This document shows, in pieces, positions 7,796-59,252 of a stretch of 64,000 nt of DNA. The stretch is from an uncultured Bacilli bacterium. Its GTDB lineage: Bacteria; Bacillota_I; Bacilli_A; RF39; UBA660. The DNA is taken from contig CAKOIY010000001.1 of NCBI GenBank assembly GCA_934087515.1, positions 3,308 to 67,307 of the forward strand, written 5' to 3'. The first letter of the stretch is position 1. Each line of letters starts with the position of its first letter. The notes beneath the pieces are model-generated. The model saw only the letters and a list, made by a program, of their open reading frames with translations, ran no database searches and was not told the DNA's origin. Both the position numbers and the translations under genes were made by a program.

Positions 7796-7885
7796 AATAG
7801 GTGTTTTTCTTTCACAATAGTTTTATATGTGTCATAAGATAATATGAAATATAAAACCACCCAAGACCTAGAAAGTGAGGGAAAA

Positions 7886-8095: not shown

Positions 8096-8144
8096 ACATG
8101 TATAAAGTTACATGTCTTTTCATATTGTTTAATAGAGGGATATT

Positions 8145-10426: not shown

Positions 10427-10455
10427 TTGCAATTATATCGTTTTTGTGGTATAAT
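10427..10455 (+). promoter_or_regulatory. Sigma-A-type promoter (TTGCAA-17 nt-TGgTATAAT) for the downstream repeat-protein gene
   Basis: The -35 element TTGCAA (10427-10432), a 17-nt spacer and an extended -10 TGGTATAAT (10447-10455) are read directly. The element overlaps the track's proposed start codon at 10444. Confidence 0.55.
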
Positions 10456-10482
10456 ATGCGCGAATTAAGTGAGGTGTTTGAT

Positions 10483-12087: not shown

Positions 12088-12317
12088 AAGATAAGATAAT
12101 TACTTTAGGAAATGGTAAAGAGTTTTTAATAGTTGATGTTTGTAGATATAATGGTATTGACTATTGCTTGGTGTGTGAAGTAGTTAATAATGATACTACT
12201 GATTCGTTTGGAGTTATTAGAATTGATGAAATTGATGGTAAGCGAAAAATAACTGTTATTGAAGATGAAAATATTATTAAGAATGTATTTGCTATAGTTG
12301 AAAAGAATTTTAGTTAG
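12084..12317 (+). CDS. DUF1292-like small protein (YrzB-like), copy 1
   Basis: The 77-aa ORF has the pattern KIITLGNGKEFLIVDVCRYNGIDYCLVCEVVNND...IRIDEIDG...TVIED. Its start overlaps the stop of the upstream gene (ATGA). Confidence 0.45.
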   Translation: MKDKIITLGNGKEFLIVDVCRYNGIDYCLVCEVVNNDTTDSFGVIRIDEIDGKRKITVIEDENIIKNVFAIVEKNFS

Positions 12318-12396
12318 ATTTTGTTGTGAAATTTATTTATTTATGTTATAATACACGAAAAAGAGGGGTTCCCTTTGTGAGAGGAGATAATAATTT

Positions 12397-13710: not shown

Positions 13711-13725
13711 GAAAGGGGAAAAAAT

Positions 13726-13977
13726 ATGACTTTTAAAAGATATGATGTTATTACTTTTGAAGAAAATGATAAGGTAGTGGTACTTGCTGCACTTGTGCAT
13801 GAAGGAAATGAATATGTTTATGTTAATGAGATATTACCTGATGAATCTGATGTAACTGATGTATATAAGGTAATGGTTGTGCATTATGAAGATGGGACAC
13901 TTGAAAAGGTAATTGATCCTGAACTTCTTCATGTATTGTTACCTAAGTTTCAAGAGTTATTAGAACAAGCTGATTAA
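13726..13977 (+). CDS. DUF1292-like small protein, copy 2
   Basis: The translation YDVITFEENDKVVVLAALVHEGNEYVYVNEILPDESD..VYKVMVVHYEDGTLEKV follows the DUF1292 pattern. Confidence 0.5.
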   Translation: MTFKRYDVITFEENDKVVVLAALVHEGNEYVYVNEILPDESDVTDVYKVMVVHYEDGTLEKVIDPELLHVLLPKFQELLEQAD

Positions 13978-13978
13978 A

Positions 13979-14012
13979 GTTAAACTTATTCTGAGTTATG
14001 AATAAGTTTCTT
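13979..14012 (+). terminator. Rho-independent terminator
   Basis: A perfect 10-bp stem aaacttattc/gaataagttt has an 8-nt loop and is followed by a T-rich run. Confidence 0.6.
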
Positions 14013-14032
14013 TTGTATGGGTGGTGAATATA

Positions 14033-14935
14033 ATGAGCAATGAAGTTAAAAAATTAAGTGAAAAAGCTAGTGATGAAGATAAAGTTAGAATTGAAAAACT
14101 AATGGAATTACCTCTTAATGATAGTGAACGTGATGCTTCTATTAAGTTAATTGTTTTGGATTCTTTTGCTAAGTTAATGTATGATGATGAATTAAATATA
14201 GTTTTTGATGAGTCTGATAAGGCAAAGGATGCAAGAGATGCTATTGCTAATAGATTAGGTGTTGATTCTGATGAATTACAGATGATTGCTGATTATAAGA
14301 AGAAGAATAATGTTAAATGTACTTTGAATAGAAATGATGTTATAAAGAAGAATTCTGATCTTAATGAATTTATTGATAAGATGAGTGTTGCAGAGATGAA
14401 TTCTATACTTAATATGAAGGCATCTGGTAATTATGATGATAATATTTTGAATAATATTTCTAGTAGAATTGGTGCTTCTGCTTCTAAACTTGAAGAAATT
14501 GCTGTTGAAAAGAATAAAGGTCTTATGAGTGGTAAGAATAATGATAAATCTATGGAAAATGGTGAGTCTAAATCTTTAGATGAAAATAATAATAATAATA
14601 ATGACAAAGATAAAGATAAAGAAAAGGAAGTTACTTCTAGTTCTAGTGGGTCTAATGGCACTAATCTTGAAGAAAAAGATGATTCTTCAAAGACTAAGGT
14701 TTCTGCTGATTTAACTCCTGAAAAGAAGAAAAAACCTAATAGAATTACTACAGCAGGTGCTAAACTTATTGCTTCGATTAAAAATAATAAAGGTAAAGCT
14801 ATGCTTGGTATATTAGGTCTTGGTGCTGTTGCAGTTCTTGCTATTACTAATCCTGTTATGTTTTGGACTTTACTTGCTGCGGCTGGTATTGGTAAGATAT
14901 ATAAAGATTTTCAAGCTGGAGCAAAAGGTAGATAA
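14033..14935 (+). CDS. Hypothetical protein with Asn/Asp/Lys low-complexity region and C-terminal membrane hairpin
   Basis: The ORF has an RBS GGTGGTGA and ATG at 14033. An N-terminal helical region is followed by the low-complexity stretch ENNNNNNDKDKDKEKE. The C-terminus LGILGLGAVAVLAI..LLAAAGIG is hydrophobic. Confidence 0.45.
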   Translation: MSNEVKKLSEKASDEDKVRIEKLMELPLNDSERDASIKLIVLDSFAKLMYDDELNIVFDESDKAKDARDAIANRLGVDSDELQMIADYKKKNNVKCTLNRNDVIKKNSDLNEFIDKMSVAEMNSILNMKASGNYDDNILNNISSRIGASASKLEEIAVEKNKGLMSGKNNDKSMENGESKSLDENNNNNNDKDKDKEKEVTSSSSGSNGTNLEEKDDSSKTKVSADLTPEKKKKPNRITTAGAKLIASIKNNKGKAMLGILGLGAVAVLAITNPVMFWTLLAAAGIGKIYKDFQAGAKGR

Positions 14936-20788: not shown

Positions 20789-22273
20789 TTATATTACTAT
20801 AGCTATTAGATTGTTTGATCCTTTGTTTACTACTTTGGACATTGTTGTTTGAAATTTATATCTTACGTTTTCTGGCATCATTGATATTTTTGATTGGATT
20901 CCTTCTTGGACTATTTTGTCTAAGCTTCTTCCAAATATTTCGCTTGACCAGATACTGTTTGGATCACTATTGCTATCTTTCATTAGGTGTTCTATTAGTT
21001 CTTTGCTTTGGGCTTCGCTACCGATTATTGGTTCAAAGCTTGATTCTACATCTACTCTTATCATATGTATTGATGGTGCTGTTGCTTTTAGTTTTATTCC
21101 ATATCTTGATCCTTGTTTTGTTATTTCTGGTTTGTCTAATTTCATATCTTTTATAGTGGGATTTGCAACTCCGTATCCAGTTGTTTTTACCATTTTTAGA
21201 GCTTGTTCTAGTTCTTTATATTCTGTTTTTGTTTCTTTGTATTCTTGGAATATTTTCAAAAGATTTGTTTTGTTTGTTATGTCTATGTCAATCATTTCGT
21301 TTAATACTTTTTCGAATAGTTCTTGAGGTGCTTCTAATGTTATGGTTATGATTCCTGTTTTAGGATCTACTAAGGACATATAGGCATTTTTTATGTACTG
21401 GCAATTGTTGAAATGACTTATTATTCCATCAACATCACGTAATTTATCTACTTCAATTACACTTTCTTTTATTTTATCTATGTAAGCTTTTTTGACATAA
21501 TGATTTGGTTTTAGGATTCCAATCCATTCTGGTATATCGATGTTTACTTCTAATATAGGAAATTCATATAGAGCTTCTCTTAATATATTATTTATTTCTA
21601 TTTCATTCATATTTAGTACATCTATTGGTAGGACAGGTACTTTGTATTTTACTTTTAGTTCTTCTGTTAGTTTTTCTGTTTCTTTTGCTGTTGGTTTAGT
21701 TGTATTTAGTATTATTATATATGGTTTGTTTATTGAACTTAGTTCTAGTGCTATTTTTTCTTCTGCTTCAATATAGTCTTTTCTTGAGAATTCTCCGATA
21801 GTTCCATCTGTTGTAATCATTATTCCTATTGTTGAGTGGTCTCTTATTACTTTTTCTGTTCCTATTTCTGCGGCTTCAACGAATGGTATTTCATCTTTGT
21901 ACCAGGGGGTTTTTACCATTCTAGGGCCGTTTTCGTCTTCGTAGCCTTTGGCTTCATCAATTATGTATCCTACGCAGTCTACTAGTCTCATGTTACAAGT
22001 CATGTCATCTATTTTTATTTGGGCAACATTGTTGGGAACAAATTTGGGTTCTATAGTCATAATAGTTTTTCCTCCACTTGATTGTGGTATTTCATCTAGA
22101 GCTCTTTTTCTTTCGTATTCGTCTTCTATGTTGGGAACTATAAGTTCTTCTACTACTTTTTTGATAAAGGTTGATTTTCCAGTTCTTACTGCTCCAACTA
22201 CTCCTAGGTAAATGTCTCCGCCGGTACGATAGGCTATGTTTTTGATTATTTCTTGTTTATCCACATGCATCAC
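20789..22273 (-). CDS. spoIVA: Stage IV sporulation protein A (spore coat morphogenetic ATPase)
   Basis: The N-terminus ..IAYRTGGDIYLGVVGAVRTGKSTFIKK..PNIEDEYERKRALDELPQSSGGKTIMTIEPKFVPN..RLVDCVGY is near-identical in pattern to B. subtilis SpoIVA. The length is about 494 aa. Confidence 0.85.
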   Translation of the reverse strand: MMHVDKQEIIKNIAYRTGGDIYLGVVGAVRTGKSTFIKKVVEELIVPNIEDEYERKRALDEIPQSSGGKTIMTIEPKFVPNNVAQIKIDDMTCNMRLVDCVGYIIDEAKGYEDENGPRMVKTPWYKDEIPFVEAAEIGTEKVIRDHSTIGIMITTDGTIGEFSRKDYIEAEEKIALELSSINKPYIIILNTTKPTAKETEKLTEELKVKYKVPVLPIDVLNMNEIEINNILREALYEFPILEVNIDIPEWIGILKPNHYVKKAYIDKIKESVIEVDKLRDVDGIISHFNNCQYIKNAYMSLVDPKTGIITITLEAPQELFEKVLNEMIDIDITNKTNLLKIFQEYKETKTEYKELEQALKMVKTTGYGVANPTIKDMKLDKPEITKQGSRYGIKLKATAPSIHMIRVDVESSFEPIIGSEAQSKELIEHLMKDSNSDPNSIWSSEIFGRSLDKIVQEGIQSKISMMPENVRYKFQTTMSKVVNKGSNNLIAIVI

Positions 22274-34962: not shown

Positions 34963-35979
34963 ATGCAAACATTACAAATAAGAAATTCAACAGCAGAATT
35001 TTTGATATTTACAGGACAAAATAAAGAAAAGACAATAGAAGTGATTGTTGATGAAGAATCAGTTTGGCTTAGTCAAAAATTGATGGCCGAACTTTTCGGA
35101 ACAACAAGAAATAATATAACAATACATCTTTCTAATATTTTTGAAAAAGAATTAAGTGAGAATTCAGTATGTAAAGAATTTTTACATACTGCTAGAGATG
35201 GAAAAAATTATAAAACAAAATATTATAATTTAGATGTTATTATTGCTGTTGGATTTAAAGTTAATAGCAAAAGAGCAATAGAGTTTAGATTGTGGGCAAT
35301 CAATATTTTAAAACAATATTCTATAAAGGGGTATGTATTAGATAAAGAAAGACTTAAAAATGGAACTTTTTTAAATGAAAATTATTTTGATGAATTATTA
35401 CAAGAAATAAGAGAAATAAGAATTAGTGAAAGGAATTTTTATCAAAAGATTACCGATATTTACACAACAAGTTTAGATTATAATGTAGCTTCACCAATAA
35501 CAAAAGATTTTTTTAAAACAGTCCAAAATAAAATGCATTATGCTGTTCATGGGAATACGGCTGTGGAAATTATAGTGAATCGTGCAAATCATAAAAAAAC
35601 ACATATGGGATTAACAAATTGGAAAAATTCACCTAATGGTAAAATAATTGCATCTGATGTTATAGTTGCTAAAAATTATCTAACTAAAGAGGAATTAAAA
35701 TCTTTAGAAAGAATTGTTACAATGTATTTAGATTATGCAGAGGATCAAGCTGAAAGACATATTCCTATGACAATGGAAGACTGGAAAAGTAAGTTAGATG
35801 TATTTTTACAATTTAATGAAAGAGATGTACTTGATAATCCTGGTAGAGTATCCCATAAGGTAGCAGAAAGTTTTGCAATTTCTGAATTTGAAAAGTATAG
35901 AATTAACCAAGATAGATTATTTGAATCTGATTTTGATAAGTTTATGATTGAAATGGAAAATGATGATATCAAGTGCTAA
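34963..35979 (+). CDS. RhuM-family protein (Fic/DOC-associated putative DNA-binding virulence protein)
   Basis: The N-terminal region is ...WLSQKLMAELFGTTRNNITIHLSNIFEKELSENSVCKEFLHTARDGKNYKTKYYNLDVIIAVGFKVNSKRAIEFRLWAINILKQY. This is the RhuM signature. Confidence 0.75.
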   Translation: MQTLQIRNSTAEFLIFTGQNKEKTIEVIVDEESVWLSQKLMAELFGTTRNNITIHLSNIFEKELSENSVCKEFLHTARDGKNYKTKYYNLDVIIAVGFKVNSKRAIEFRLWAINILKQYSIKGYVLDKERLKNGTFLNENYFDELLQEIREIRISERNFYQKITDIYTTSLDYNVASPITKDFFKTVQNKMHYAVHGNTAVEIIVNRANHKKTHMGLTNWKNSPNGKIIASDVIVAKNYLTKEELKSLERIVTMYLDYAEDQAERHIPMTMEDWKSKLDVFLQFNERDVLDNPGRVSHKVAESFAISEFEKYRINQDRLFESDFDKFMIEMENDDIKC

Positions 35980-36121
35980 ATGGATATCATTCTCAGATTA
36001 TTGGATTTTGAAGTAAATGAAATAATTTCAAATACTGTTAGATTATAGATATTTTTATGTACTTTTTCCTTATACAAAGTTTATATTTTTGAATAGTATA
36101 AATTAGATAGGAGGATTTATA

Positions 36122-36463
36122 ATGTTTGAAAATATGAGTAATAGTCCATTTATGATGCCTAATCAAGAGGGGTTTATTGATATTGATAATAATCAAGGAA
36201 ATATTGATATTGATTTAAATCAAAGTCAAACTAGTAATATTAATAATGGCCCTATGATGGGTATGACTTCTCAACCTATAATTGAACCTATGAGAGAAAG
36301 AGTTGTTAATAGAACAATTGAACATGTTGTACCACATGTGTGTCCTGTTAGAACAAGAATAGTAAATCATCATGTGTTTAAACATACTTATAGTCCAAGT
36401 TATAGTTGTTGTGAAGAAAATGTTTGTGAAAATGTACAATGTGGTTCTTGTTGTAATTATTAG
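36122..36463 (+). CDS. CotD-like small His/Cys-rich spore coat protein
   Basis: The motif IEHVVPHVCPVRTRIVNHHVFKHTYSPSYSCCEEN...CCNY resembles B. subtilis CotD (VHPTHCCEHHTF..HIHP..NHQHFQHVHYFPHTF...CCDY), including the terminal CC-x-Y. Confidence 0.45.
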   Translation: MFENMSNSPFMMPNQEGFIDIDNNQGNIDIDLNQSQTSNINNGPMMGMTSQPIIEPMRERVVNRTIEHVVPHVCPVRTRIVNHHVFKHTYSPSYSCCEENVCENVQCGSCCNY

Positions 36464-36612
36464 TAATTGTTTTGATTGAATGACTTTGGTCATTCTTTTT
36501 TTGACTATATTAATTTTTGTATTTTGAATTAGTATAAATTTGTTGGTTTATTAATTGATAATTTTTGTGATATGTGTTATTTTATTTTTAGAGTAATATT
36601 TATATATAAGTA

Positions 36613-37380
36613 ATGTTGGAGTTGATGTTTGTGAATGTTAATCAAATTAAAGATGAGTTAATTAAACAAAAAAGTTCTAAGTTTAAGGGAAATATATATT
36701 ATTATTCTCAAATTAATTTTTCTTATAATTCAAATAAAATTGAGGGTAGTAGATTAACTAGTGAACAAACTGAAGCAATATTTGATACATCTTCATTTAT
36801 TTCTAAGGGTGATACTTTGATTGAACTGGATGATGTGATTGAATCTAGAAATCATTTTAAATTGTTTGATTATATACTTGATAATGTGGATGAATTACTA
36901 ACTAAAGATATGATAGTTGAAATGAATAAGATTTTAAAGAGAAATACTAGTGATGAGGAAAATCCTAGATATAATGTTGGTGGATTCAAAATTGTTCCAA
37001 ATATGATTGGAGCAGTTAATGTTGTTAACACTACTAGACCAGAAGATGTAGAAAATGAAATAATAGAGTTATTAGATGAATATAATTCTAAAACAGATAT
37101 TACTTTAGAAGATATAGTGGATTTTCATTATAGATTTGAAAGAATACATCCGTTTGGAGATGGAAATGGTCGTGTTGGACGAATTATAATGTTTAAAGAG
37201 TGTCTTAGAAATAATATTATGCCATTTATTGTACTTGATGATGATAAAATTTATTATTTAAGAGGTTTAAAAGAGTATAAAAATGATAAAATGTTTTTAA
37301 TTGATACTATTAGACATGAACAAGATATATATAAGGGTGTTTGTGAAATGTTGCTTTCTTTTGAAATTAAAGATTTTTAA
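36613..37380 (+). CDS. Fic-family protein (AMPylase/Doc-like)
   Basis: It has the canonical Fic motif HPFGDGNGRVGR. Confidence 0.8.
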   Translation: MLELMFVNVNQIKDELIKQKSSKFKGNIYYYSQINFSYNSNKIEGSRLTSEQTEAIFDTSSFISKGDTLIELDDVIESRNHFKLFDYILDNVDELLTKDMIVEMNKILKRNTSDEENPRYNVGGFKIVPNMIGAVNVVNTTRPEDVENEIIELLDEYNSKTDITLEDIVDFHYRFERIHPFGDGNGRVGRIIMFKECLRNNIMPFIVLDDDKIYYLRGLKEYKNDKMFLIDTIRHEQDIYKGVCEMLLSFEIKDF

Positions 37381-37469
37381 ATAGAGTTTTATGACTGAAT
37401 GATAGTGTTTTTGAGTATAAGAAGTTATTTTTTATGTGATGAAATTGATAATTTTATAAATAATAAAAT

Positions 37470-38003
37470 ATGGTATGGAGGATTATTATGGATGTTTTCT
37501 TTATTTTTGGGGAGATTTTTTCTCTTTTAGCTGCAGTTTGTTTGTGTTATTCTACTTTTAGTACTAGTAAGAAAAATATGGTGTTTTGGCAATTAATTGA
37601 TTCTGTTTTGGGTGCTGTTTCTAATATTTTTTTATTTAGTTTTTCTGGTGTTGTTACTAATATACTTGCTGCGGTTAGAAATTTGTTTGAGGTTAAGGGT
37701 AAGAATAATAATGTTATTGTAATTGTTTTTTGTTTTTTGAATATGGTTTTGGGGTTATTATTTAATAATAGGGGTTTTGTTGGTGTTTTACCAATTCTTG
37801 CTACTATTGAATATACTATTGCTATATATGTGTGTAAGAGTTCTCAAAGTTTGAGAATTGGTTTGTTAATTAATACTGTTTTTTGGGGTGTTTATGATTT
37901 GCTTATAATGTCTTATCCTCTTTTTGTTGCAGATGTTATTATATTTGTTTTTGCTATTATTAATGTTGTTAGGCTTAGAAATAGTGATTTGGTTAAGGAA
38001 TAG
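37470..38003 (+). CDS. Small polytopic membrane protein (YgjV-like)
   Basis: It has five to six predicted TM helices. The family assignment is weak. Confidence 0.35.
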   Translation: MVWRIIMDVFFIFGEIFSLLAAVCLCYSTFSTSKKNMVFWQLIDSVLGAVSNIFLFSFSGVVTNILAAVRNLFEVKGKNNNVIVIVFCFLNMVLGLLFNNRGFVGVLPILATIEYTIAIYVCKSSQSLRIGLLINTVFWGVYDLLIMSYPLFVADVIIFVFAIINVVRLRNSDLVKE

Positions 38004-45216: not shown

Positions 45217-45252
45217 GTAGCTTAAAGGCTGCTTTTTTTGGAGGTAGATATT

Positions 45253-45693
45253 ATGTTAGAAAAGTTTAAAAAAGAAATGATAACTGCAATGAAGGAAAGA
45301 GATAAGGTTAAACTTAATACTTTAAGAGCAGTTAAAGGTGCTATGCAACTAGAAGTTATTAATAATAAGAAAGAAGAATCTGATGAACTTTTACTTGATG
45401 TTATTAATAAACAAATAAAGATGAGAAATGATTCTATTGAGGAATTTGAAAAAGCAGGTAGGGATGATTTGGTTAATTCTTATAAGAGTGAGATTGATAT
45501 TTTAGAGGAGTATATGCCTAAGAAATTAAGTGAAGATGAAATTAATGAAATATTGGACTTAGGTATTAGTGAGAGTGGTGCTAGTAGTGTTCGTGATTTA
45601 GGATCTGTTATGAGAATAGTTACTCCTAAGGTTAAGAATAGATGTGATATGAAAGTTGTTACTGGAATGTTAAGAGATAAATTAAGTAAATAA
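45253..45693 (+). CDS. yqeY: GatB/YqeY-domain protein
   Basis: The translation MLEKFKKEMITAMKERDKVKLNTLR... matches YqeY. The gene follows rpsU, as in Bacillus. An RBS GGAGGT lies upstream. Confidence 0.7.
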   Translation: MLEKFKKEMITAMKERDKVKLNTLRAVKGAMQLEVINNKKEESDELLLDVINKQIKMRNDSIEEFEKAGRDDLVNSYKSEIDILEEYMPKKLSEDEINEILDLGISESGASSVRDLGSVMRIVTPKVKNRCDMKVVTGMLRDKLSK

Positions 45694-45826
45694 TTTATCT
45701 TTTTTGTTCTGATTATTTTTATATTTTTTATTTTTTTAAGATAAGGTGTACATTTTGTGATTTTCTGTTGCTTTTTTTCCTATTTAAGGTTAAAATTAAT
45801 TTATAAAATATAGAGGAGTAAATAGT

Positions 45827-47956
45827 ATGGAAAAGAGGTTTAAGAGGGCATTTACTTTGGTTGAAATGTTAGTAGTTGTAGGAATTATTGCGGCTTTAAT
45901 GGTAACGGTTATTCCTATGGTTTCTAAGTATATAAAGGATGGAAAGAATGATTATAATGAGAAGCTTAAGTCTCAATTATTACTTTCTGGTAAGGATTAT
46001 TATAGTAATAATAAGGATAAGCTTCCTGTTAAAGTTGGTTTAAAGTATAAAAGTAAGGATTATGATGTTGTTTCTTTACCAGAGATGCAAAGTCAGAATT
46101 ATGTAAGTAATGATTTTGTTGATGCATATGGAAATAGTTGTAAGGAAAGTTTTGTTTATGTAAGGCAGAAGAATGATGCTAAAGAATATGATTATCATGC
46201 TTGTTTGAGATGTACTGATAAGAATGGTAAAATTATTAATTATAGTAATGATTTTGTTTGTAAAGGTAATAATTGGGGAGATGAGGTTGGTCCTGTTTGT
46301 TCTAATGATGCTAGTTATAATATTGGTGTTAGAAAGAAAAATGGTCATGTGTTTAATCCTAGTTCGGTTCTTTTAAGAGGTGTTAGAGATAGTTATGCTA
46401 CTAGTGGTGATAATAAAGGTAAGATAGTTGGGGCTTATGTTGAAGGAAAAGTTAAAGGTTTTCAAGTTTTTTTTCCTAGTAGTTATAGTTTTGATAATAT
46501 AATGGGTGTTAACTTTATAGAAAAGATTAATAAAGAATATTCAGAAAAAAATAGAAATGATGAGTATATTATAACTTTAACTGATGGTGTTCATACTTCT
46601 AGTAGTTGTGCTAAGTTTGTGATAGATAAAGAAAAACCTAGTTGTGTTTTTGATTTAAAGCAAAGTAAGGGTAATAAAACTTTGACTCTTAGTTCTAAGG
46701 ATAATTATAGTGATTCTATTAATATTAGTAAGCTTATTTCTTTGAAGGATAATGAAACTAGTGTAGAGGATAAAGGTATTAGAGTTTCTACTGTTTCTAA
46801 GAGTGTTTTAGGACTTAAAGATAGTATGTATTATGGTTATACTATGGATGAGGCTGGTAATAGTAATACTTGTTCTAAGAAAGTAAAAATAAAGATGTTT
46901 GATGGGGAAAAACCTTATTGTACTATTACTAATGATGTTGATAATAAATGGTATAGTTCTAAAGGTACATATAGAAGTAAGACTTTAAAGGCTGAGTGTT
47001 ATGTTGCAGGAGGTGCTAATAAAGCAAAAGTTGATTTGAAGAAAATTGGTGTAAGTAATGCAGTTGGTTCTGTTAGTGCTAAGAAAACTGATAATGATAA
47101 TCCTGATAATAAAGTTACTTTTGATATAGTGTTTACGCCTGCTAATAATAAGGCTGGTAATACAGTTGTTAGTTTGAATGAAGGTTTTGTTACAGATGAT
47201 GCCGGAACTACTAATGATAGTGTTAAGTCTTCAAATATTAAAGTTGATTCTATATCTCCTAGTATTAGTTATGCTCCTCAAACTTCTAAAGAAAGTGGAG
47301 GTTGGTATAAGGCTCCATTTAAACTTAAGTTAAGTTGTTTAGATAGTAATAGTGGTGTTTCTAGTTTTAAAGTTAATAATTCTAACTTTAGTTCTGGTAG
47401 TATAATTACTAGAAATAGTGCTGCTAATCCAGTTACTTATGCTTCTGTTTGTGTAGATAAAGCTGGTAATAGTGCTAGTGGTTCTAATAGTTATAAGGTT
47501 AAGGTTTATTCTGAAAATTCTATTTGTGGTATTAAGTCTTATGTAAAATGTAGACATAAAGATTGTGGGTGTGAAACTTATAAATATTGTACTAATGGAT
47601 GTAAAGTTTATAAGAAATGTAGTGCATATACTAATTGGTCATGTAAGAAAAAGACAAAGACTACTGGTTGTGTTGCTTATGGTATAGGTAAGAAATGTCC
47701 TTCTTGTTCACCTTATACAAAAACTACTAGTAAAAGAACTTGTGGTAAGTGTACTAATAAAATTTGTAAAAAAGTTGCTGGTGCTATTGTAACTATTAAA
47801 TATACTAGAAGTTATACTGATTGTACTCGTAGTTCTTATACATATAATTGTGGTTGCAAAACATATTATTATAAACAATGTGGTTGTAAGCAATATGTTT
47901 ATTGTGCTACTAAGAGATGTGGTGTTAAGTCATATGAGTCATGTTGGCATTATTAA
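45827..47956 (+). CDS. Giant modular type IV pilin-like protein (709 aa), paralogue 2, with an extremely Cys/Lys/Thr/Tyr-rich C-terminus
   Basis: The N-terminus MEKRFKRA|FTLVEMLVVVGIIAAL is a class-III signal. The conserved head includes YDYHACLRC. Repeat units begin [DE]K.P..C. The last ~150 aa contain 27 Cys. An RBS AGAGGAG lies upstream. Confidence 0.75.
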   Translation: MEKRFKRAFTLVEMLVVVGIIAALMVTVIPMVSKYIKDGKNDYNEKLKSQLLLSGKDYYSNNKDKLPVKVGLKYKSKDYDVVSLPEMQSQNYVSNDFVDAYGNSCKESFVYVRQKNDAKEYDYHACLRCTDKNGKIINYSNDFVCKGNNWGDEVGPVCSNDASYNIGVRKKNGHVFNPSSVLLRGVRDSYATSGDNKGKIVGAYVEGKVKGFQVFFPSSYSFDNIMGVNFIEKINKEYSEKNRNDEYIITLTDGVHTSSSCAKFVIDKEKPSCVFDLKQSKGNKTLTLSSKDNYSDSINISKLISLKDNETSVEDKGIRVSTVSKSVLGLKDSMYYGYTMDEAGNSNTCSKKVKIKMFDGEKPYCTITNDVDNKWYSSKGTYRSKTLKAECYVAGGANKAKVDLKKIGVSNAVGSVSAKKTDNDNPDNKVTFDIVFTPANNKAGNTVVSLNEGFVTDDAGTTNDSVKSSNIKVDSISPSISYAPQTSKESGGWYKAPFKLKLSCLDSNSGVSSFKVNNSNFSSGSIITRNSAANPVTYASVCVDKAGNSASGSNSYKVKVYSENSICGIKSYVKCRHKDCGCETYKYCTNGCKVYKKCSAYTNWSCKKKTKTTGCVAYGIGKKCPSCSPYTKTTSKRTCGKCTNKICKKVAGAIVTIKYTRSYTDCTRSSYTYNCGCKTYYYKQCGCKQYVYCATKRCGVKSYESCWHY

Positions 47957-47984
47957 AGATCGATTTTCGATCTTTTTTTTTTTG
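47957..47984 (+). terminator. Rho-independent terminator (agatcga-ttt-tcgatct + T11)
   Basis: The palindrome is read directly. The identical hairpin recurs at 49732-49755. Confidence 0.7.
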
Positions 47985-48049
47985 ATTGATAAAATTTTAT
48001 TTTTGTTTTATAATATTTTATAGTGATAATAGTGTTGGGAGGTATGAGT

Positions 48050-49732
48050 ATGTTTAATAGAAAAGGTTTTACTTTAGTAGAAGTTTTGGCTGTTGTTATT
48101 ATACTTTCTGTTTTATCTATTATGGTTATACCTAATGTTAGTGAATATGTTGCACAGGGTAAGGATGAATATAATAAAAGTCTTAAGAAAACACTTATTT
48201 TGGCGGGAAAGAATTTTTATTCTGATAACAGGATGAGAATTCCTAAACCAGTTGGTGTTGTTACTGATTTTGTTACCGCTAATGAACTTGCAAGTAAGAA
48301 TTATCTTACTGGTAGTTTTGTTGATTCTGATAAAAATGATTGTAAGAGTAAGAGTTATGTAGTGGCGGTTAATGAAATTTCTGATGTTAAGTATCATGCT
48401 TGTTTAACTTGTGGGGATAAGAATTATAGTTCTGATGATGAGTATTGTGATGTAATGGTTCGTGATATTGATTCTTCTAATCCATCTAATCCTAGTGATA
48501 GTGGTAAGAGTAAGGTTACTTGTAGTGTTAGTGCTAAAGATACTGATGATGGTGCTAGTGTTACTATTGATGCGAATAGTAGTAAAGAAAAAATTAATAA
48601 GATTATTTACTATAATACTGATACTAAGAAGTCTACAAGTTTATTAACTGATTCTGAATATAGTACTTCTATTAAAAAAACGATAACTATTAGTGATTTT
48701 GGAAAATTTAAGATTTATGTATCTAGTAGTGATGGTGTTAGAACTGATTGTGATGGTTCGGTTATTGATAATAGTTTTTCTGCTAATTTTAAAGTTGATA
48801 TGTATTTAGTTAATAAGTCAGAATATGATTCTCATAAAAATACTGAATATACTAAGACTGAGCTTAATAAACTTGAAAAATATGATGGTACTACTTGGAA
48901 AAATGCTTATGTATATGCTAAGCTTACTTATAAGAAGAGTAGATTTTCTAGTGTTGAGTTTGATGGTAATAATTTAAATAATAAATTTATTTGGCTTGAT
49001 GCAGAGGGTGCTAAAGATTATAAGATTACTGCTGTTGATAAGAAAAATGGTACTCAAACAGTTTCTTTAAGCACTAAGCTTGATAGAACTCCACCTACAG
49101 TTGCTTTTTCTAGAACTCCTGGTGATGGTTGGACTAATCAAGCTGTTACAGTTACTTCTACTCCTAGTGATGTTTCTTCTGGTATTGAAGGATTGTACTA
49201 TAGTACAAATAATGAAGATTGGAGTAAAGTTTCTTATAGTGGTTCTTTTGTTAAAGTATGGGAGAGAACTAATACTTCTAAAACTATGTATGTAAAGGCT
49301 AAGGATAATGTTGGGCTTTATTCTGATGTTAAAAGTTCAAATATTTTGATTGATGTGGTGCCTCCTGTTATGTATAAGCATTGTTTATATAAGGTTGCAA
49401 GTAAGAAATGGTATTTTAGGTATTATTTTAGTGATTCTGGTGGATCTGGGTATAGTGGTTATAAATGGGGTTATTGTTACAGAATTTGTCCTAAGTGTCC
49501 TAGTAGTTATATGTGTTCTTATAGATCTGCTGATAGTAAAGCTGCTAGTTCTAATACTTGGTATCATGGTAGTTATAAGGAAACTTCTTATCAAATTGCT
49601 CCGACTAGAGGTGCTAGGACTATTGGTTCTACTACTAGGTTATATTTTAAAGATAATGCTGGTAATGTTGCTACTGGAAGTTATACTGATACTTGGTATT
49701 ATGGTGGGGGTAGTAGTCCAGGTAGTTGTTAA
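48050..49732 (+). CDS. Giant modular type IV pilin-like protein (about 560 aa), paralogue 3
   Basis: The N-terminus MFNRKG|FTLVEVLAVVIILSVL is a class-III signal. The conserved head includes YHACLTCGDKNYSSDDEYC, and there is an Ig-like repeat TPPTVAFSRTPGDGWTNQAVTVTSTPSDVSSGIEGLYYS. An RBS GGGAGG sits 8 nt before ATG at 48050. The track's start at 48023 is probably overextended. Confidence 0.75.
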   Translation: MFNRKGFTLVEVLAVVIILSVLSIMVIPNVSEYVAQGKDEYNKSLKKTLILAGKNFYSDNRMRIPKPVGVVTDFVTANELASKNYLTGSFVDSDKNDCKSKSYVVAVNEISDVKYHACLTCGDKNYSSDDEYCDVMVRDIDSSNPSNPSDSGKSKVTCSVSAKDTDDGASVTIDANSSKEKINKIIYYNTDTKKSTSLLTDSEYSTSIKKTITISDFGKFKIYVSSSDGVRTDCDGSVIDNSFSANFKVDMYLVNKSEYDSHKNTEYTKTELNKLEKYDGTTWKNAYVYAKLTYKKSRFSSVEFDGNNLNNKFIWLDAEGAKDYKITAVDKKNGTQTVSLSTKLDRTPPTVAFSRTPGDGWTNQAVTVTSTPSDVSSGIEGLYYSTNNEDWSKVSYSGSFVKVWERTNTSKTMYVKAKDNVGLYSDVKSSNILIDVVPPVMYKHCLYKVASKKWYFRYYFSDSGGSGYSGYKWGYCYRICPKCPSSYMCSYRSADSKAASSNTWYHGSYKETSYQIAPTRGARTIGSTTRLYFKDNAGNVATGSYTDTWYYGGGSSPGSC

Positions 49733-49755
49733 GATCGATTTTCGATCTTTTCTTT
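49732..49755 (+). terminator. Rho-independent terminator, same hairpin sequence as 47957-47984
   Basis: The hairpin agatcga-ttt-tcgatct is followed by a T-rich run. Confidence 0.65.
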
Positions 49756-49828
49756 TACACTTTTTTGACAAACAAATGTTTTGTTTTTGTCTCTATGACA
49801 TAATATTACAATAAAAACTATTTACAAA

Positions 49829-49885
49829 GTGGTTTTGTGATAATATAATTGTGGTAGACAGTGGTATATAGTGGTTGAAAGTGGT
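49829..49885 (+). promoter_or_regulatory. Array of direct GTGGT repeats with exact 10-bp spacing immediately upstream of mraZ (candidate MraZ operator)
   Basis: GTGGT occurs at 49829, 49851, 49861, 49871 and 49881. Most sit in an (A/T)AAGTGGT context. Confidence 0.55.
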
Positions 49886-49891
49886 GATGTT

Positions 49892-50323
49892 ATGTTAATG
49901 GGTGAGTACCATCATAATATTGATGAGAAGGGTCGTATTATAATACCTTCTAGATTACGTGATGAACTTGGTGATAATGTAATAGTTACTCGTGGTCTTG
50001 ATGATTGTTTGTTTTTATATTCTATGGATGAATGGTCTTTACTTGTTTCTAAACTTAAATCACTTCCTTTTACTAAGAGAGATGCTAGGAATTTTTCTAG
50101 AATGTTTCTTTCGGGTGCTACTGGTTGTTTATTTGATAAACAAGGTCGTGTTAAGATATCTTCTCCGCTTATTAATTATGCTAGTCTTAATCATGAGTGT
50201 GTTATTATTGGTGTTAATGATAGAATTGAGATATGGGCTAAGGAAAAGTGGGATAAGTTTATTTGTGATAGTACTAATGAATTTTCAGATTTAGCAGATC
50301 ATTTGTTTGATATTGGGGGATAA
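49892..50323 (+). CDS. mraZ: Transcriptional regulator MraZ
   Basis: The translation MLMGEYHHNIDEKGRIIIPSRLRDELG... matches the MraZ consensus start MFMGEY.H.ID.KGR and the duplicated SpoVT/AbrB fold. The track's start at 49871 is probably overextended. Confidence 0.9.
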   Translation: MLMGEYHHNIDEKGRIIIPSRLRDELGDNVIVTRGLDDCLFLYSMDEWSLLVSKLKSLPFTKRDARNFSRMFLSGATGCLFDKQGRVKISSPLINYASLNHECVIIGVNDRIEIWAKEKWDKFICDSTNEFSDLADHLFDIGG

Positions 50324-54882: not shown

Positions 54883-56583
54883 TTAGTTGCCTTGTATGTT
54901 ATTATCGTTATATATATTTTTTAATAGGTCGTCGGTGTAGTTTTCTTTGTTTTGGGTATTGTTATCTATTCTTAAGGAATTAAAGACATTGTCATCGAAT
55001 AGATTTCCGTCATTATTGTTTGTAAATATGTTTTGCTGTGGTTCTTGGTTGTTGTTTATTTGTGGTTTATTTATTTGGTTTGAGTTTTCTAGTTGTTCAA
55101 TGTTTTGATTTATGTTTTCGTTAGGAATATTTATTATGTTTTGATTTGTTTGATTATTTTGGTTTTCTGGTGTTTCTTGTTGTATGTTATTTTGATATGT
55201 GTTGTTTATTTGTTCTTGTGGATTGTTATTTAATATTTCTTGGTTTACATTGTTATTCTGATTGTTTTCTGTTATTGTTTGGTTGTTGTTTATTATTTCT
55301 GGATTTGTATATATCATGTTGTTATTCATTAGTGGATTGTTTTCATCTGATGTGTCTATTCCTATGGTTTTATCTACAAAATCTTCGGAGATGTCATCGT
55401 AGTCGTCGTAATCTACTAATCTAAATACTTCTTTTAAATCTGTTATTCCTTCTAGGACTTTTATTAATCCATCTTGGAATAGGGTTTTTACATTTTTTTT
55501 GTATATTAAATGTTTTAGTTCTTCACGATCGATTCCTTTATTGATAGCTTCTCTTATTTCTTCATTTATCATTAATACTTCTTGAAGGGCAATTCTTCCT
55601 GTGTAACCGTTATGACAGTGTTCACAATTTCCGGCTTCATATATTGTGTCTATATTTATTCCTAGTGCTTTTTTGAATAGTATTTTTTCTGTTTCGTTAG
55701 CAGGTCTTTGAGTTCTACAACGTGGACATAGTTTTTTTGCTAGGGTTTGCGAGATTATTCCCTTTAGTGATGATGATAAGAGGTATCTTTCAACATCCAT
55801 ATCGATAAGTCTTTCGATGGTTGTTAGGGAATTGTTTGTATGTAGTGTTGATAGTACTAGATGTCCTGTTATAGATGCACGTATTGCTATTTTTGCTGTT
55901 TCACTATCACGAATTTCTCCGATTAGAATGATGTTAGGGTCTTGTCTTAGAATTGAACGAAGTACTGTAGCAAAGTCTAATCCAATTTCAGAGTTTACTT
56001 GTACTTGGTTAAGTCCTTCGATACTCATTTCTACGGGATCTTCTACTGTTATGATGTTTGTTTCTTCTTTGTTTAGTTTTTGAAGCATTGAATATACTGT
56101 TGTAGATTTACCAGATCCAGTTGCTCCGGTTATTAGGATGATACCGTTAGGACTGTTTAACATTTCCATAATTATTTTGTAGTTATCTCCGGTGAAACCT
56201 AGGTATTCTATTCCTTGTAAACTCATTGAATAGTCTAGGATTCTGATAACTATTTTTTCTCCAAAGCTTGTTGGTAAGGCAGATACACGAAGATCTAAAT
56301 CTTTTCCTTCGATAACACTTTTTATAGCACCATCTTGTGGTAGTCTTGATTCTGTGATATTCATTCCTGCAAGTAGTTTTACTCTAGTTGTAAGATTTCT
56401 TTTGTATTTGTTATCTATTATGGCATAATCACGAAGTTCTCCATCTATTCTTATTCTAATTTTTAGGTATTTTTCTGCTGGATCAAAATGAATATCACTA
56501 GCATTTCTTACTACTGAATCAATTATAATATCATTTACTATGTCTACTATGGGAGTGGTAGTAAAATCAAATTCTCGCATCAT
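54883..56583 (-). CDS. ComGA/PilB/GspE-family secretion ATPase with a ~175-aa Asn/Gln-rich C-terminal extension
   Basis: It has Walker A GATGSGKST, the Asp box/Walker B and the His box TLHTN. The tetracysteine motif is CPRC...CEHC. An N/Q low-complexity tail (NNQTITENNQNNNVNQEILNNNPQEQ...) follows. Confidence 0.8.
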   Translation of the reverse strand: MMREFDFTTTPIVDIVNDIIIDSVVRNASDIHFDPAEKYLKIRIRIDGELRDYAIIDNKYKRNLTTRVKLLAGMNITESRLPQDGAIKSVIEGKDLDLRVSALPTSFGEKIVIRILDYSMSLQGIEYLGFTGDNYKIIMEMLNSPNGIILITGATGSGKSTTVYSMLQKLNKEETNIITVEDPVEMSIEGLNQVQVNSEIGLDFATVLRSILRQDPNIILIGEIRDSETAKIAIRASITGHLVLSTLHTNNSLTTIERLIDMDVERYLLSSSLKGIISQTLAKKLCPRCRTQRPANETEKILFKKALGINIDTIYEAGNCEHCHNGYTGRIALQEVLMINEEIREAINKGIDREELKHLIYKKNVKTLFQDGLIKVLEGITDLKEVFRLVDYDDYDDISEDFVDKTIGIDTSDENNPLMNNNMIYTNPEIINNNQTITENNQNNNVNQEILNNNPQEQINNTYQNNIQQETPENQNNQTNQNIINIPNENINQNIEQLENSNQINKPQINNNQEPQQNIFTNNNDGNLFDDNVFNSLRIDNNTQNKENYTDDLLKNIYNDNNIQGN

Positions 56584-56704
56584 AAAAATCGTTCCCCTTT
56601 ATTCTAATTTGTAAAATTCATAGTTATTTTATTTTTACACTAGAATTTATTCTAAAAGTATTATATAATAAATTTGTAAAATAAGCAAGTAGAAGGTGAG
56701 TAAT

Positions 56705-58585
56705 ATGAGAAGGAAATTAAAAAATAATAAGGGTTTTGCTATGGCTGAGTTATTGGCTGTTTCTATGGTAATATTGCTTCTTTTTTCTATTCTTTTTTCT
56801 AATTATTTACCACTTGTTGCAGAATATGAGAATAGGCTTAGTTATAATGATGTAACTGCGGAGTATGCTGGTTATTATGTTAGAAAGATGTATTTGACTG
56901 ATGATAATAAATTGTCTAGTTCTACTAAAAATTTTATTAATGATGGTATTGGTAATAAGGCTTTTTATAAGGTTTATGATAAGAGTAGTAAAATTAATAA
57001 TGTTTGTTCTTGGTATTCTAATTTGCAAGCTGATGATAAAAAAGTTGCTGCTAGGAATTATTGTAATAATATTTTAGAGGAGTATGGTGTTGAAGAAATA
57101 ATTATTACTAATTATAGTATGACTAATGTTAAGAGTAAGTATACTGAATCTTCTGGAAAACTTTATAAGTATATAAAGTATTTACCTGAATATAAGAATA
57201 CTATTTATAAGGGTGATAATGATTTATATAGGATTATTTTAAAAACTAAAGATGGTTATGCTACTACTCCGATTGATACTGATTATTATACTCCTGGTAG
57301 TTGTTTTGTTGGTAGAAGTGTTTCTGGTGGCATTGAAATTACTAAATATAATATGTCTGGTAGTGATTGTGGCTCTAGTGTTACTATAAGAAAAGATAAG
57401 AAACTTACTATGAAGAATAGTGCTGGTAAGAGTATAACTGGTAAGGTTGTTTCTATTGGAAATAGTGCTTTTAAGGATCTTGAAGTTACTTCTATTAATT
57501 TAAATAGTATGGTAAAGAGTATTGGTGCTAGTGCATTTGAAGGTTCTAAACTTGAGAGTGATAGTATTAATTTGACTGGTGTTACTAGTATTGGAGATAG
57601 AGCTTTTAAAAATACTCAAATTAGTAGTATTGATATACCTTCTAGGGTTACAAAAGTTGGAAAAGAAGCATTTGCTAATAATAGTAAGCTTACTTCAATT
57701 AAGATTAATAATAGTGTTGTTAGTGAAGGGGAATTTATGAAATCTGGTGATAATAGTGTTATTAGTTATATTAATCTTGGAAGTGTTACTAAAATAAGTA
57801 AAAATATGTTTTATAACTTTAAGTTTTCTAGTGATAGTGCTATAGTAATGTCAAATGTTACTAATATTGATGAAAGTGCTTTTGCAAGTGATGCTATTCA
57901 AAAAATAAATAATATCTCTATTAGTAAAGTTACTAGTGTTGGTAATAAGGCTTTTTATAATTTAGATATTAAGAATTTGGTTTTAGGTAATATTAGTAGT
58001 ATAGGTGATAAGGCATTTGCTTTAAGTAGTGGTAGTAGTAATAGTAATAGTTTACCTAAAGTTGATTTGAGTTTTGTTACTGTTTTAGGAAATAATGCTT
58101 TTGAAAATAGAAAGATTGATGAATTAAATCTTAGTGGTTCTAGTATTGCTTCTATTTCTAACTATGCTTTTAAATCTTGTGATATTTCTAGTGTTACTTT
58201 TTCTGATAAGATTACTAGTGTTGGAGAAGGTAGTTTTGAAGGAAATAATTTTAATAAAATTGATTTACCTAGTTCTTTAACTAATATTGGGGTTAATGCT
58301 TTTAAGGAAAACTCTAATATTACTAGTTTTGATTTACCAGCTTCTTTAAATGTTATTGGAAATGGTGCTTTTGATAGTTGGAGTAAACTTGAAACTATTA
58401 ATAATAATTCTACTAAATTTAATGATTATGATAATTGGTGTATGGTTGTTGCTAGTGGTGATACTAGTTGTAAAGCTGAAAAGAGTGATACTGGTTATGC
58501 TATAGGTATTGGTGATAGAAGTATTAATGTAGTTAATAGTAATAGTAATAAAACTTCTGAGAATGGGGGTAATAGTAATGAATAA
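56705..58585 (+). CDS. Pseudopilin-like protein with BspA-type leucine-rich repeat domain
   Basis: The N-terminus MRRKLKNNKG|FAMAELLAVSMVILLL has a class-III signal with Glu at +5. It is followed by 12 or more ~22-25-aa repeats of the type (I/V)xSIGxxAFxxxxLxSIxxP. Confidence 0.7.
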   Translation: MRRKLKNNKGFAMAELLAVSMVILLLFSILFSNYLPLVAEYENRLSYNDVTAEYAGYYVRKMYLTDDNKLSSSTKNFINDGIGNKAFYKVYDKSSKINNVCSWYSNLQADDKKVAARNYCNNILEEYGVEEIIITNYSMTNVKSKYTESSGKLYKYIKYLPEYKNTIYKGDNDLYRIILKTKDGYATTPIDTDYYTPGSCFVGRSVSGGIEITKYNMSGSDCGSSVTIRKDKKLTMKNSAGKSITGKVVSIGNSAFKDLEVTSINLNSMVKSIGASAFEGSKLESDSINLTGVTSIGDRAFKNTQISSIDIPSRVTKVGKEAFANNSKLTSIKINNSVVSEGEFMKSGDNSVISYINLGSVTKISKNMFYNFKFSSDSAIVMSNVTNIDESAFASDAIQKINNISISKVTSVGNKAFYNLDIKNLVLGNISSIGDKAFALSSGSSNSNSLPKVDLSFVTVLGNNAFENRKIDELNLSGSSIASISNYAFKSCDISSVTFSDKITSVGEGSFEGNNFNKIDLPSSLTNIGVNAFKENSNITSFDLPASLNVIGNGAFDSWSKLETINNNSTKFNDYDNWCMVVASGDTSCKAEKSDTGYAIGIGDRSINVVNSNSNKTSENGGNSNE

Positions 58586-59252
58586 TAAGGGTATGACTAT
58601 TGTTGAACTTATTGTAACTTTTTCTCTTTTACTTGTTATTGTAGTTGGTATGTTTAATTTGATAACTGATGTTAAGCTTGAACTTGAGAATAAGCAAATA
58701 GGGAAGGATTTTACTGAGTATTCTTCTACTATAGGGAATAAGATACAATATGATTTTTTAAATAGTAAGATTGGTTCTATTGCTTTTAAGAATAGTGGTA
58801 ATGAATGGAGTTGTGTAAATAGATCCGGTCCCTGTGTAAGTGTTCCTAGTGGTGGTTATATGTTTGGTAACAAAAGTATAACTTTTGATGAGCTTAATAG
58901 TATGTGTAAGGATATTACTCCTTGTGTTGTTTATTCTTATAAGAATGGTAATAATGATGATTTTAGAGTTATTGGTCTTAATATAGAGCCTAGTAGCTCT
59001 GGTGCTTTAGCTAAATATGGTATATATTATAATGGTGTTTTTGAAGCTATTCCTGATCAAGATTATGTTGAGATTAAGAATGTTATTAATGTTAGTGATT
59101 CTGATGAAGAAGAAGATGTTGTTGCTAAGAAACCAGAGGCTAGATATGAGAATGATTTATTTGTTATTGATTTTCCTTTTTATTTAGTTGATAGTAATAA
59201 GAATTATGGTTTTAAAATTGTTTATTCTTTTGATACTAAAGAAAATAAATAA
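58578..59252 (+). CDS. Pseudopilin-like protein (about 225 aa)
   Basis: The N-terminus MNNKG|MTIVELIVTFSLLLVIVVGMF has a class-III signal. Its start overlaps the upstream gene's stop by 8 nt. Confidence 0.6.
   Translation: MNNKGMTIVELIVTFSLLLVIVVGMFNLITDVKLELENKQIGKDFTEYSSTIGNKIQYDFLNSKIGSIAFKNSGNEWSCVNRSGPCVSVPSGGYMFGNKSITFDELNSMCKDITPCVVYSYKNGNNDDFRVIGLNIEPSSSGALAKYGIYYNGVFEAIPDQDYVEIKNVINVSDSDEEEDVVAKKPEARYENDLFVIDFPFYLVDSNKNYGFKIVYSFDTKENK

Follow-up and report, generated by a model that had tools for sequence, protein, structure and literature searches.

Layout of the locus

The locus described here lies in a 64-kilobase (kb) stretch of contig CAKOIY010000001.1 from an uncultured Bacilli bacterium, a stretch that is called the window and in which positions are counted from the first letter. 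It comprises two large genes, gene 1 (P2) and gene 2 (P3), which encode predicted modular type IV pilins and stand head-to-tail on the + strand between yqeY and mraZ, separated by 93 nucleotides (nt). A head-to-tail pair of large open reading frames (ORFs) had been claimed in an earlier reading of the letters alone (the sequence-only reading), and both ORFs are present on the + strand. The locus contains the following features.

45238 to 45693, + strand: yqeY, the upstream flank (Pfam YqeY, E = 2.8e-43)
About 45672 to 45705: AT-rich terminator hairpin of yqeY (predicted -12.3 kcal/mol, z = -4.1)
45827 to 47956, + strand: gene 1, predicted modular type IV pilin of 709 amino acids (aa), recognised by its ORF, the N_methyl and TIGR02532 profiles, an AlphaFold2 (AF2) model and 18 homologue clusters
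45827 to 46225, + strand: pilin (carrier) module of gene 1, residues 1-133, from the AF2 model of residues 1-150 and alignments A2, A4 and A5
46193 to 46206, + strand: 14-nt stretch TATCATGCTTGTTT, codons Y-H-A-C-L, the same as at 48392 to 48405; crossover site of a natural chimera
46559 to 47506, + strand: immunoglobulin (Ig)-like beta-sandwich stalk of gene 1, residues ~245-560, from Foldseek and a predicted local distance difference test score (pLDDT) > 90
47507 to 47953, + strand: Cys-rich C-terminal tail of gene 1 (alignment A2; low-confidence long hairpins in the model)
47955 to 47981, + strand: terminator copy 1, AAGATCGA-TTT-TCGATCTT, then a T-run
47986 to 48014, + strand: promoter-like site of gene 2, TTGATA-17 nt-TATAAT (11/12, a consensus match only)
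48050 to 49732, + strand: gene 2, predicted modular type IV pilin of 560 aa (ORF, N_methyl, TIGR02532)
48392 to 48405, + strand: partner copy of the 14-nt crossover stretch, within gene 2
49731 to 49756, + strand: terminator copy 2, ~65 nt upstream of the mraZ promoter-like site
49821 to 49884, + strand: mraZ promoter-like site (49821-49849) and four GTGG boxes
49871 to 50323, + strand: mraZ, the downstream flank (Pfam MraZ, E = 8e-41)

The ORF of gene 2 opens at 48023, and the ATG at 48050, which stands 7 nt past GGGAGG, is its likely start and gives the 560-aa protein. Each of the two genes is equipped with a separate ribosome-binding site and terminator, and upstream of gene 2 there is in addition a promoter-like site; the genes are best read as monocistronic, independently transcribed units. 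The G+C content of the window is 29%, and the pilin pair, with a GC content of 0.29-0.31 and a skew of +0.37 to +0.44, matches the neighbouring sequence.

Architecture of the encoded proteins

The product of gene 1 starts with the leader MEKRFKRA followed by FTLVEM, and that of gene 2 with MFNRKG followed by FTLVEV. Both proteins contain the leader, Phe1, Glu5 and the hydrophobic stretch of a class III signal peptide, and both score above the cutoffs of N_methyl (22.3 bits for gene 1 and 27.0 for gene 2; cutoff 21.2) and TIGR02532 (18.6 and 24.4; cutoff 16.3). Glu5 and the full-length alpha-1 assembly interface are kept across the family.

The AF2 model of gene 1, built with 15 homologues, has a mean pLDDT of 76.7 and comprises an alpha-1 of ~50 residues, a small beta-sheet head, a run of beta-sandwiches, and long C-terminal hairpins of low confidence. 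Modelled in isolation (residues 1-150), the carrier module reaches a pLDDT of 86.5, with alpha-1 at residues 11-61 and 4-5 strands; the alignments show four near-invariant Cys in it, C105, C126, C129 and C145. The same carrier module was found fused to other bodies in many proteins by profile search.

The stalk (residues ~245-560, pLDDT > 90) matches GhpA, SiiE, cadherins, nectins and PrgB in Foldseek, with E down to 1e-9, and its last domain (profile positions 459-561) repeats up to 30 times in giant proteins of 1000-6000 aa. The tail of the gene 1 family consists of CG[VC]xxYxxC repeats in variable number and ends in CWHY, which is nearly invariant across species, while the gene 2 family ends in SPGxC (SPGSC in the window). 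An exhaustive profile search gave 212 cluster representatives at E < 1e-30, and no Cys-rich tail was present among its matches outside the gene 1 pilin family. Pfam searches on the C-terminal tails and stalk segments gave nothing above noise except a weak Big_12 match; gene 2 and its paralogues show a hint of an OmpL47-type beta-barrel domain.

The two proteins thus combine an N-terminal pilin module with Ig-like domains foreign to type IV filament biology, which is the definition of a modular pilin. As predicted from sequence and models, genes 1 and 2 are modular type IV pilins that consist of a carrier module with a small head that Cys residues would stabilise, an Ig-like stalk, and a family-specific tail. 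A role in adhesion is inferred from the resemblance of the modelled folds to those of adhesins.

Relationship among the three paralogues

A third member of the family is found ~41 kb upstream of the pair.

5139 to 7193, + strand: paralogue 1 (P1), modular pilin of 684 aa, with its own, different terminator

Genes 1 and 2 have only the N-terminal ~130 aa in common (45% identity, E = 2e-29), and the remainder is unrelated. P1 shares the carrier module with both, and the gene 1 module has 45-47% identity to the modules of gene 2 and P1. Outside the module, gene 2 and P1 have homologous bodies (37% identity over 470 aa, E = 1e-69), and because of this body homology gene 2 is nearer to the distant P1 than to its tandem neighbour. 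The sequence-only reading had described the genes as pilin paralogues with diverged coding regions, and this is borne out, with the shared part confined to the pilin module. Its further claim of module swapping agrees with the homology between the bodies of gene 2 and P1 and with a natural gene 1/gene 2 chimera in a near-identical strain, which is described below.

The tandem duplication that it had also proposed stands in part. The shared module may ultimately go back to a duplication, but to one older than the divergence of the species, and one that does not account for the identical terminators. The duplication is old because both types already stand in tandem in a related species (locus L019), with orthologues that are only 43% and 39% identical to genes 1 and 2.

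The shared terminator and the mraZ leader

The string AAGATCGATTTTCGATCTT is present exactly twice in the 64 kb, at 47956 and 49731, against 0.06 copies expected by chance. The repeat spans 26 nt, of which 25 match, including an unbroken run of 21 identical nt. Both copies score as terminator-like, with an 8-9-bp stem, a 3-nt loop and a T-run, as in the sequence definition of an intrinsic terminator, and folding predicts -8.7 kcal/mol (z = -2.1) and -11.5 kcal/mol (z = -4.1) for the two hairpins. They are the predicted Rho-independent terminators of genes 1 and 2. The same hairpin and T-run at both gene ends had been recognised earlier, and the count of exactly two copies agrees; the length given then, 24 nt, does not, as the quoted string counts 20 letters.

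The hairpin begins 1 nt within the stop codon of gene 1 and 2 nt within that of gene 2, so that the register of hairpin and ORF differs between the two copies. Past the 26 nt, what follows gene 1 resembles what follows gene 2 no more than shuffled sequence does (local score 19 vs 18 +/- 3). Since similarity falls to the shuffled level, the shared 3' end is, on this comparison, a small discrete element and not the edge of a larger duplication. An extended duplication around the terminators was considered and is ruled out by this shuffle-level alignment together with the unrelated coding 3' ends. The conserved 3' ends of the sequence-only reading therefore hold for the non-coding 26 nt, but not for the C-terminal coding sequence, which ends in SCWHY in one gene and SPGSC in the other.

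Three related loci place the element in order. In L019, gene 2 is followed by the same hairpin, AAGATCGATTTTCGATCTTTT, and gene 1 ends in a different one. In L107 and L108 the shared hairpin sits after gene 1, and in L108 it carries a compensatory G:C to A:U change that preserves the stem. Variation of the terminator among strains is confined to the loop. Because the gene 1 terminator differs in L019, the identical pair is a derived state, and the copy after gene 1 is best seen as a later acquisition and no relic of duplication. The mraZ-proximal terminator is, by this sequence comparison, the one conserved across species.

The leader of mraZ contains a promoter-like TTTACA-17-TATAAT followed by GTGG boxes at 49851, 49861, 49871 and 49881, with an exact spacing of 10 nt. 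The window leader matches the GTG(G/T) box with a 6-nt spacer, and also an arrangement of four boxes that is reported for some Mycoplasma (PMC12957436). The boxes are conserved in L019 and in L022, a further relative. The mraZ start is probably ATG 49892 (MLMGEYHH), which is preferred because the listed GTG start at 49871 falls inside the GTGG boxes. Since both the mraZ-proximal terminator and the mraZ leader are conserved, the gene 2 terminator probably insulates the auto-regulated promoter of mraZ and its division and cell wall (dcw) operon from upstream transcription. The palindromic terminator contains two GATC sites, and the window also encodes a Dam-type methylase. Methylation-dependent control through these sites was raised as an idea and set aside, as nothing here supports it.

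A pilin-like gene stands immediately upstream of mraZ in 6/72 species, compared with 9/916 for other genes (odds ratio 9, Fisher p = 4e-4, a statistic that ignores shared ancestry). These immediate upstream prepilin-type genes encode 373-723 aa and belong to more distant species of the same order (L045, L049, L082, L087, L094 and L099). On a speculative view, the recurrence could reflect a functional coupling of pilus display and the MraZ-controlled cell-division operon.

The locus in other species and the age of the pair

A scan with MraZ as the query, with one genome per species, gave 80 loci, nearly all of them in metagenome-assembled genomes (MAGs) labelled uncultured Bacilli, Tenericutes or 'Mycoplasma sp. 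CAG:611'. The closest genome records are MAGs labelled Mycoplasma, Tenericutes or Mollicutes.

L019 has the order yqeY, a small helix-turn-helix ORF, a pilin of 675 aa, a pilin of 592 aa, and mraZ. Its pilins are the orthologues of gene 1 (43%) and gene 2 (39%) mentioned above, and its Ffh and PBP2B are 93% and 82% identical to those of the window. L107 has the same gene order, and its gene 1 orthologue is 66% identical. In L022 (Ffh 88%, PBP2B 79%), ffh-rpsU-yqeY adjoins mraZ across a 179-nt gap with no pilins between. Among the 70 remaining species representatives with usable upstream sequence, yqeY was found within ~10 kb upstream of mraZ in none. The window species, L019 and L022 are about equidistant (Ffh 88-93%, PBP2B 77-82%). 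L019 and L022 have downstream genes in common that the window lacks, a weak hint on the polarity of gain or loss.

In other genera, homologous pilins are placed after spoIVA-ftsAZ-...-LCP (L104-106) or between rpe and gatCAB (L109); these differing sites indicate that the genes behave as scattered monocistronic units. The contigs of L104-L106, three independent ones from another species group, all end ~25-70 nt past a gene-1-type pilin, a pattern that points to a repeat, possibly a second pilin module, as what breaks these assemblies.

The sequence-only reading had taken the pair for an accessory insertion at a rearrangement breakpoint and had asked whether yqeY and mraZ adjoin where the pilins are absent; they do so in L022. 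Presence and absence between relatives with conserved flanks is indeed what is seen (L022 vs the window species, L019 and L107), and it falls at a lineage-specific junction. That part of the claim stands, but signs of foreign origin or mobility do not accompany it: an integrase, a transposase, a tRNA target, border repeats and deviant composition were looked for at the locus as marks of a genomic island and not found, and the only direct repeat there is the terminator, which brackets gene 2 and not the pair. Moreover, both genes recur between conserved flanks in L019 and L107, which is the finding that had been named beforehand as refuting an insertion.

A recent acquisition at a breakpoint that joins rpsU-yqeY to mraZ is accordingly regarded as improbable. 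It would account for L022, where yqeY lies beside mraZ with nothing between, for the restriction of yqeY-mraZ adjacency to this small clade, and for the homologous pilins at other chromosomal sites in L104-106 and L109. It is opposed by the same gene types at the same site in L019 and L107, whose protein identities of 39-66% reveal a divergence far above that of the flanks, and this argues for long residence. It is opposed as well by a GC content and skew indistinguishable from those of the neighbours, by the failure to find an integrase, transposase, tRNA or border repeat at the locus, and by the yqeY-mraZ junction that is intact without pilins in L022, so that the joining of the two blocks does not depend on the pilins. 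As judged from these comparisons, the pair is present or absent depending on the lineage, at a junction that is itself lineage-specific, and it is no recent acquisition. The tandem pair is old within a small clade of uncultured gut Bacilli, and was either lost in one congener or acquired before the remaining species diverged.

Strain-level variation

Human-gut metagenomes, Hadza samples among them, gave many contigs with the exact gene 1 and MraZ proteins. On every one of those contigs the order is yqeY, gene 1, gene 2, mraZ, and the flanks are at least 99% nt-identical to the window. The proteins of gene 2 fall into clusters at 94, 83, 64 and 59% identity. In L008 and L014, gene 2 is 88% identical to the window at the nt level in the module, ~67% in the body, and 99.4% in the C-terminal part, and on this pattern it is a mosaic allele. 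Gene conversion from P1 was rejected as the source of the divergent gene 2 allele P0033, which is 36% identical to P1 and no closer to it than the window allele is.

Near-identical strains show three states of the locus, namely two genes, one chimera, and gene 1 alone. In L017 and L018 (flanks 98.7% identical), a single chimeric gene of 571 aa (P0017) lies between yqeY and mraZ. The first 133 residues of P0017 are of gene-1 type (95% identical) and the remainder is of gene-2 type. At the nt level, L017 is identical to window gene 1 to the left of the 14-mer and to gene 2 to the right of it, and the chimera compared with the window represents a 2199-nt deletion. A scan of Joint Genome Institute (JGI) metagenomes with the gene 1 family profile gave only three loci, one of them useful; this locus, L101, is the parental two-gene form of the chimera sub-lineage.

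The third state is represented by L021 (flanks 96-98% identical, MraZ 98%), in which a gene-1-type gene runs straight into the mraZ leader. At this junction the stretch covered by both alignments is exactly the 26-nt terminator repeat, and the locus is shorter than that of the window by 1775 nt. The L021 contig begins inside gene 1, and the state was read from gene 1 to mraZ only. The bin that contains it is named 'Lachnospiraceae bacterium', all other relatives being labelled Bacilli, and it is probably mis-binned or mislabelled.

These states suggest that the pilin modules and the 26-nt terminators are sites at which recombination has remodelled the locus. Such remodelling would have produced the two-gene, one-gene chimera and gene-1-only states, and homologous exchange would account for the high polymorphism of gene 2 among strains that are nearly identical elsewhere. 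The likely outcome, as far as the sequences tell, is strain-level diversity of surface adhesins or antigens.

The alternative that the locus is static, and that the chimeric and gene-1-only forms are assembly artefacts from the repeated module and terminator, was weighed and is held to be very improbable. Both variant junctions fall exactly on repeats, contigs of this family often end at pilin genes, and L021 is a short contig whose bin bears the wrong taxon label, all as expected of artefacts. However, the junction repeats of 14 and 26 nt are below the k-mers usual for final contigs, and two different pipelines assembled the chimera with identical protein sequence. The chimera is contained in a 64-kb contig with flanks ~1.3% different from the window, and its gene-2 part is only ~90-94% nt-identical to the two-gene strains, so that it is no mixture of the window strain's reads. 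L021, for its part, has its own single-nucleotide polymorphisms within and around the junction.

A more far-reaching proposal is that the module and terminator repeats serve as recombination anchors by which the population switches among the states or stalk cassettes, a form of adhesin or antigenic variation free of silent cassettes, together with a possible coupling of pilins to MraZ. This proposal is speculative and improbable.

Filament genes and the probable role of the proteins

Further genes of a type IV filament lie downstream of the pair.

54883 to 59252: nearby type IV filament genes, namely an ATPase, a leucine-rich repeat (LRR) pilin and a small pilin (T2SSE and LRR_5 matches)

The PilB/GspE-type ATPase (54883-56583, - strand; T2SSE E = 1e-122) stands ~5 kb downstream of the pair. 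It is followed by a 629-aa pilin with BspA-type leucine-rich repeats at 56696-58585 (LRR_5 E = 3e-53) and a 229-aa pilin at 58563-59252, which places two further pilins 5-9 kb downstream of the pair. The ATPase has a long N/Q-rich C-terminal tail, and its pilB gene is only 91-94% identical between strains with 99% identical flanks. The LRR pilin varies in length from 486 to 629 aa among strains. In L025, an ORF that is PilD-like by its sequence alone, and then an 831-aa LRR protein, stand upstream of mraZ.

A prepilin peptidase would cleave the leader of the gene 1 and gene 2 products, and alpha-1 would let a type IV filament machine, such as that of the PilB-type ATPase 5 kb downstream, incorporate the protein. 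Each protein would probably be a low-abundance or tip subunit that displays its Ig-like stalk and tail as an adhesin.

Another reading is that the prepilin N-terminus is only a secretion and membrane-anchor device, type II-secretion-like or 'pseudopilin-anchored', for large surface adhesins that are no filament subunits. The proteins, at 560-709 aa, are very large for packing into a filament, the genes for PilC, PilD and PilM are not adjacent, and some Gram-positive type IV pilus gene sets are proposed as secretion systems (PMC11580942). On the other side, PilB and PilC of Streptococcus sanguinis, modular pilins built on a comparable plan, do become part of pili (PMC8179133), and Glu5 and the entire alpha-1 assembly interface are conserved across the family. 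The anchor-only reading is thus considered unlikely, and incorporation into a filament is preferred.

Taken together, the results are read as those of an old pair of modular pilins, probably adhesins, that has been reshaped by recombination at two repeats and by allelic exchange, and this reading as a whole is regarded as reasonably probable. Several observations weigh against it. Position -1 of gene 1 is Ala and not Gly, with Gly in the orthologues of other species. The isolated carrier module gave no significant Foldseek match in the PDB, where the closest real pilin is PilA1 of Clostridioides difficile (E ~0.4, template modelling score ~0.3), and sequence likeness to solved pilins (Geobacter and others, E at least 0.003) ends after alpha-1. 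The platform protein PilC and the prepilin peptidase PilD are not recognisable among the ORFs of the 64-kb window. The variant states come from metagenome assemblies, with L021 a single 3.7-kb contig and L017 and L018 possibly derived from the same sample, and a crossover of 14 nt is short for RecA-dependent recombination. Finally, because the three species are equidistant, gain and loss in L022 are indistinguishable.

Comparison with known systems

Streptococcus sanguinis PilB, with a von Willebrand factor A (vWA) module, and PilC, with a lectin module, are modular pilins, and more than 1,200 such proteins occur in 264 architectures (PMC8179133). Like the window proteins, they begin with a small pilin module, which includes a class III signal peptide, and carry bulky C-terminal modules that are not pilus-specific, and the predicted role is the same, an adhesive module on the type IV filament of a monoderm bacterium. 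In contrast, the cargo here is an Ig-like string with a Cys-rich CWHY tail (gene 1) or an SPGxC tail (gene 2), there is no detectable sequence likeness past alpha-1, and the genes stand single or paired among housekeeping operons, outside a pil operon. CofB of enterotoxigenic Escherichia coli likewise has beta-repeat and beta-sandwich domains. The Ig-like domains of SiiE, GhpA and PrgB match the stalk domains in fold, but these proteins are exported or anchored by other routes (type I secretion system, sortase and others) and not by a prepilin N-terminus.

The C. difficile pilins PilA1 and PilJ also come from a low-GC Gram-positive gut anaerobe, and PilA1 is the nearest real pilin, with a match that is not significant. 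Unlike the window pilins, they are without an Ig-like stalk. PilJ, which is unusually large for a pilin, has a metal site coordinated by Cys, and this gives a lead for the four conserved Cys of the carrier module.

The pilA allele groups of Pseudomonas aeruginosa and the pilE/pilS antigenic variation of Neisseria are examples of pilin loci at which recombination and allelic replacement concentrate while the flanks are conserved. The window pilin locus is similar in that it varies between strains while its flanks are conserved. It differs from pilE/pilS in that each of the three window paralogues is a full ORF that has its own start codon, ribosome-binding site and terminator, and silent promoterless partial cassettes of the pilE/pilS type are absent among the three. 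The variation here also differs in kind, as it consists of deletion between tandem genes that each look expressed and of allelic exchange, seen between different samples. The pilus of the gut clade TANB77 (PMC11680825) was set aside, since it is Tad-type, occurs in Clostridia and is unrelated to these proteins.

Significance

Genes 1 and 2 extend the modular pilins and change no current concept; they are ordinary in kind. Modular pilins are thought to be a general route to new binding functions of type IV filaments, with evidence nearly all from a few cultured species, and the locus presents the design in an uncultured, reduced-genome lineage of gut Bacilli. The architecture of an Ig stalk with a Cys-rich tail is described by no domain database. 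The strains also provide clean natural examples of remodelling, in which a crossover in the carrier module gives a chimera and a terminator-to-terminator junction removes a whole gene. Strain differences in proteins of this kind at the cell surface could have a bearing on how a human gut commensal attaches to its host and how the immune system recognises it.

Other observations in the window

A block of rhuM, fic and ygjV (34963-38003) lies beside the Dam-type methylase gene of the window. L001 also has this block and L017 (1689-2235) does not; from this comparison it appears to be a small strain-variable island.

Three consecutive paralogous ORFs of 547, 437 and 304 aa are found at 10444-14935. 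They share repeats such as DVRQADYEINNILxRLRKQG(I/V)(D/N)ANL, and 2/3 of them end in a hydrophobic segment.

The gene spoIVA is present in the window (side regions 7286-9059 and 20789-22273), and its orthologue in L104, which is 85% identical, carries Pfam SpoIVA domains. ORFs in those regions also resemble spoIIIAH and gerM when their sequences are read. The lineage may, on this showing, keep sporulation genes.

Nearly all genes of the window are on the + strand. The GC skew is ~+0.3 to +0.5 in nearly all 2-kb bins of the 64 kb and ~0.1 at the minus-strand spoIVA, a strand asymmetry that is unusually strong for a genome of 29% G+C.

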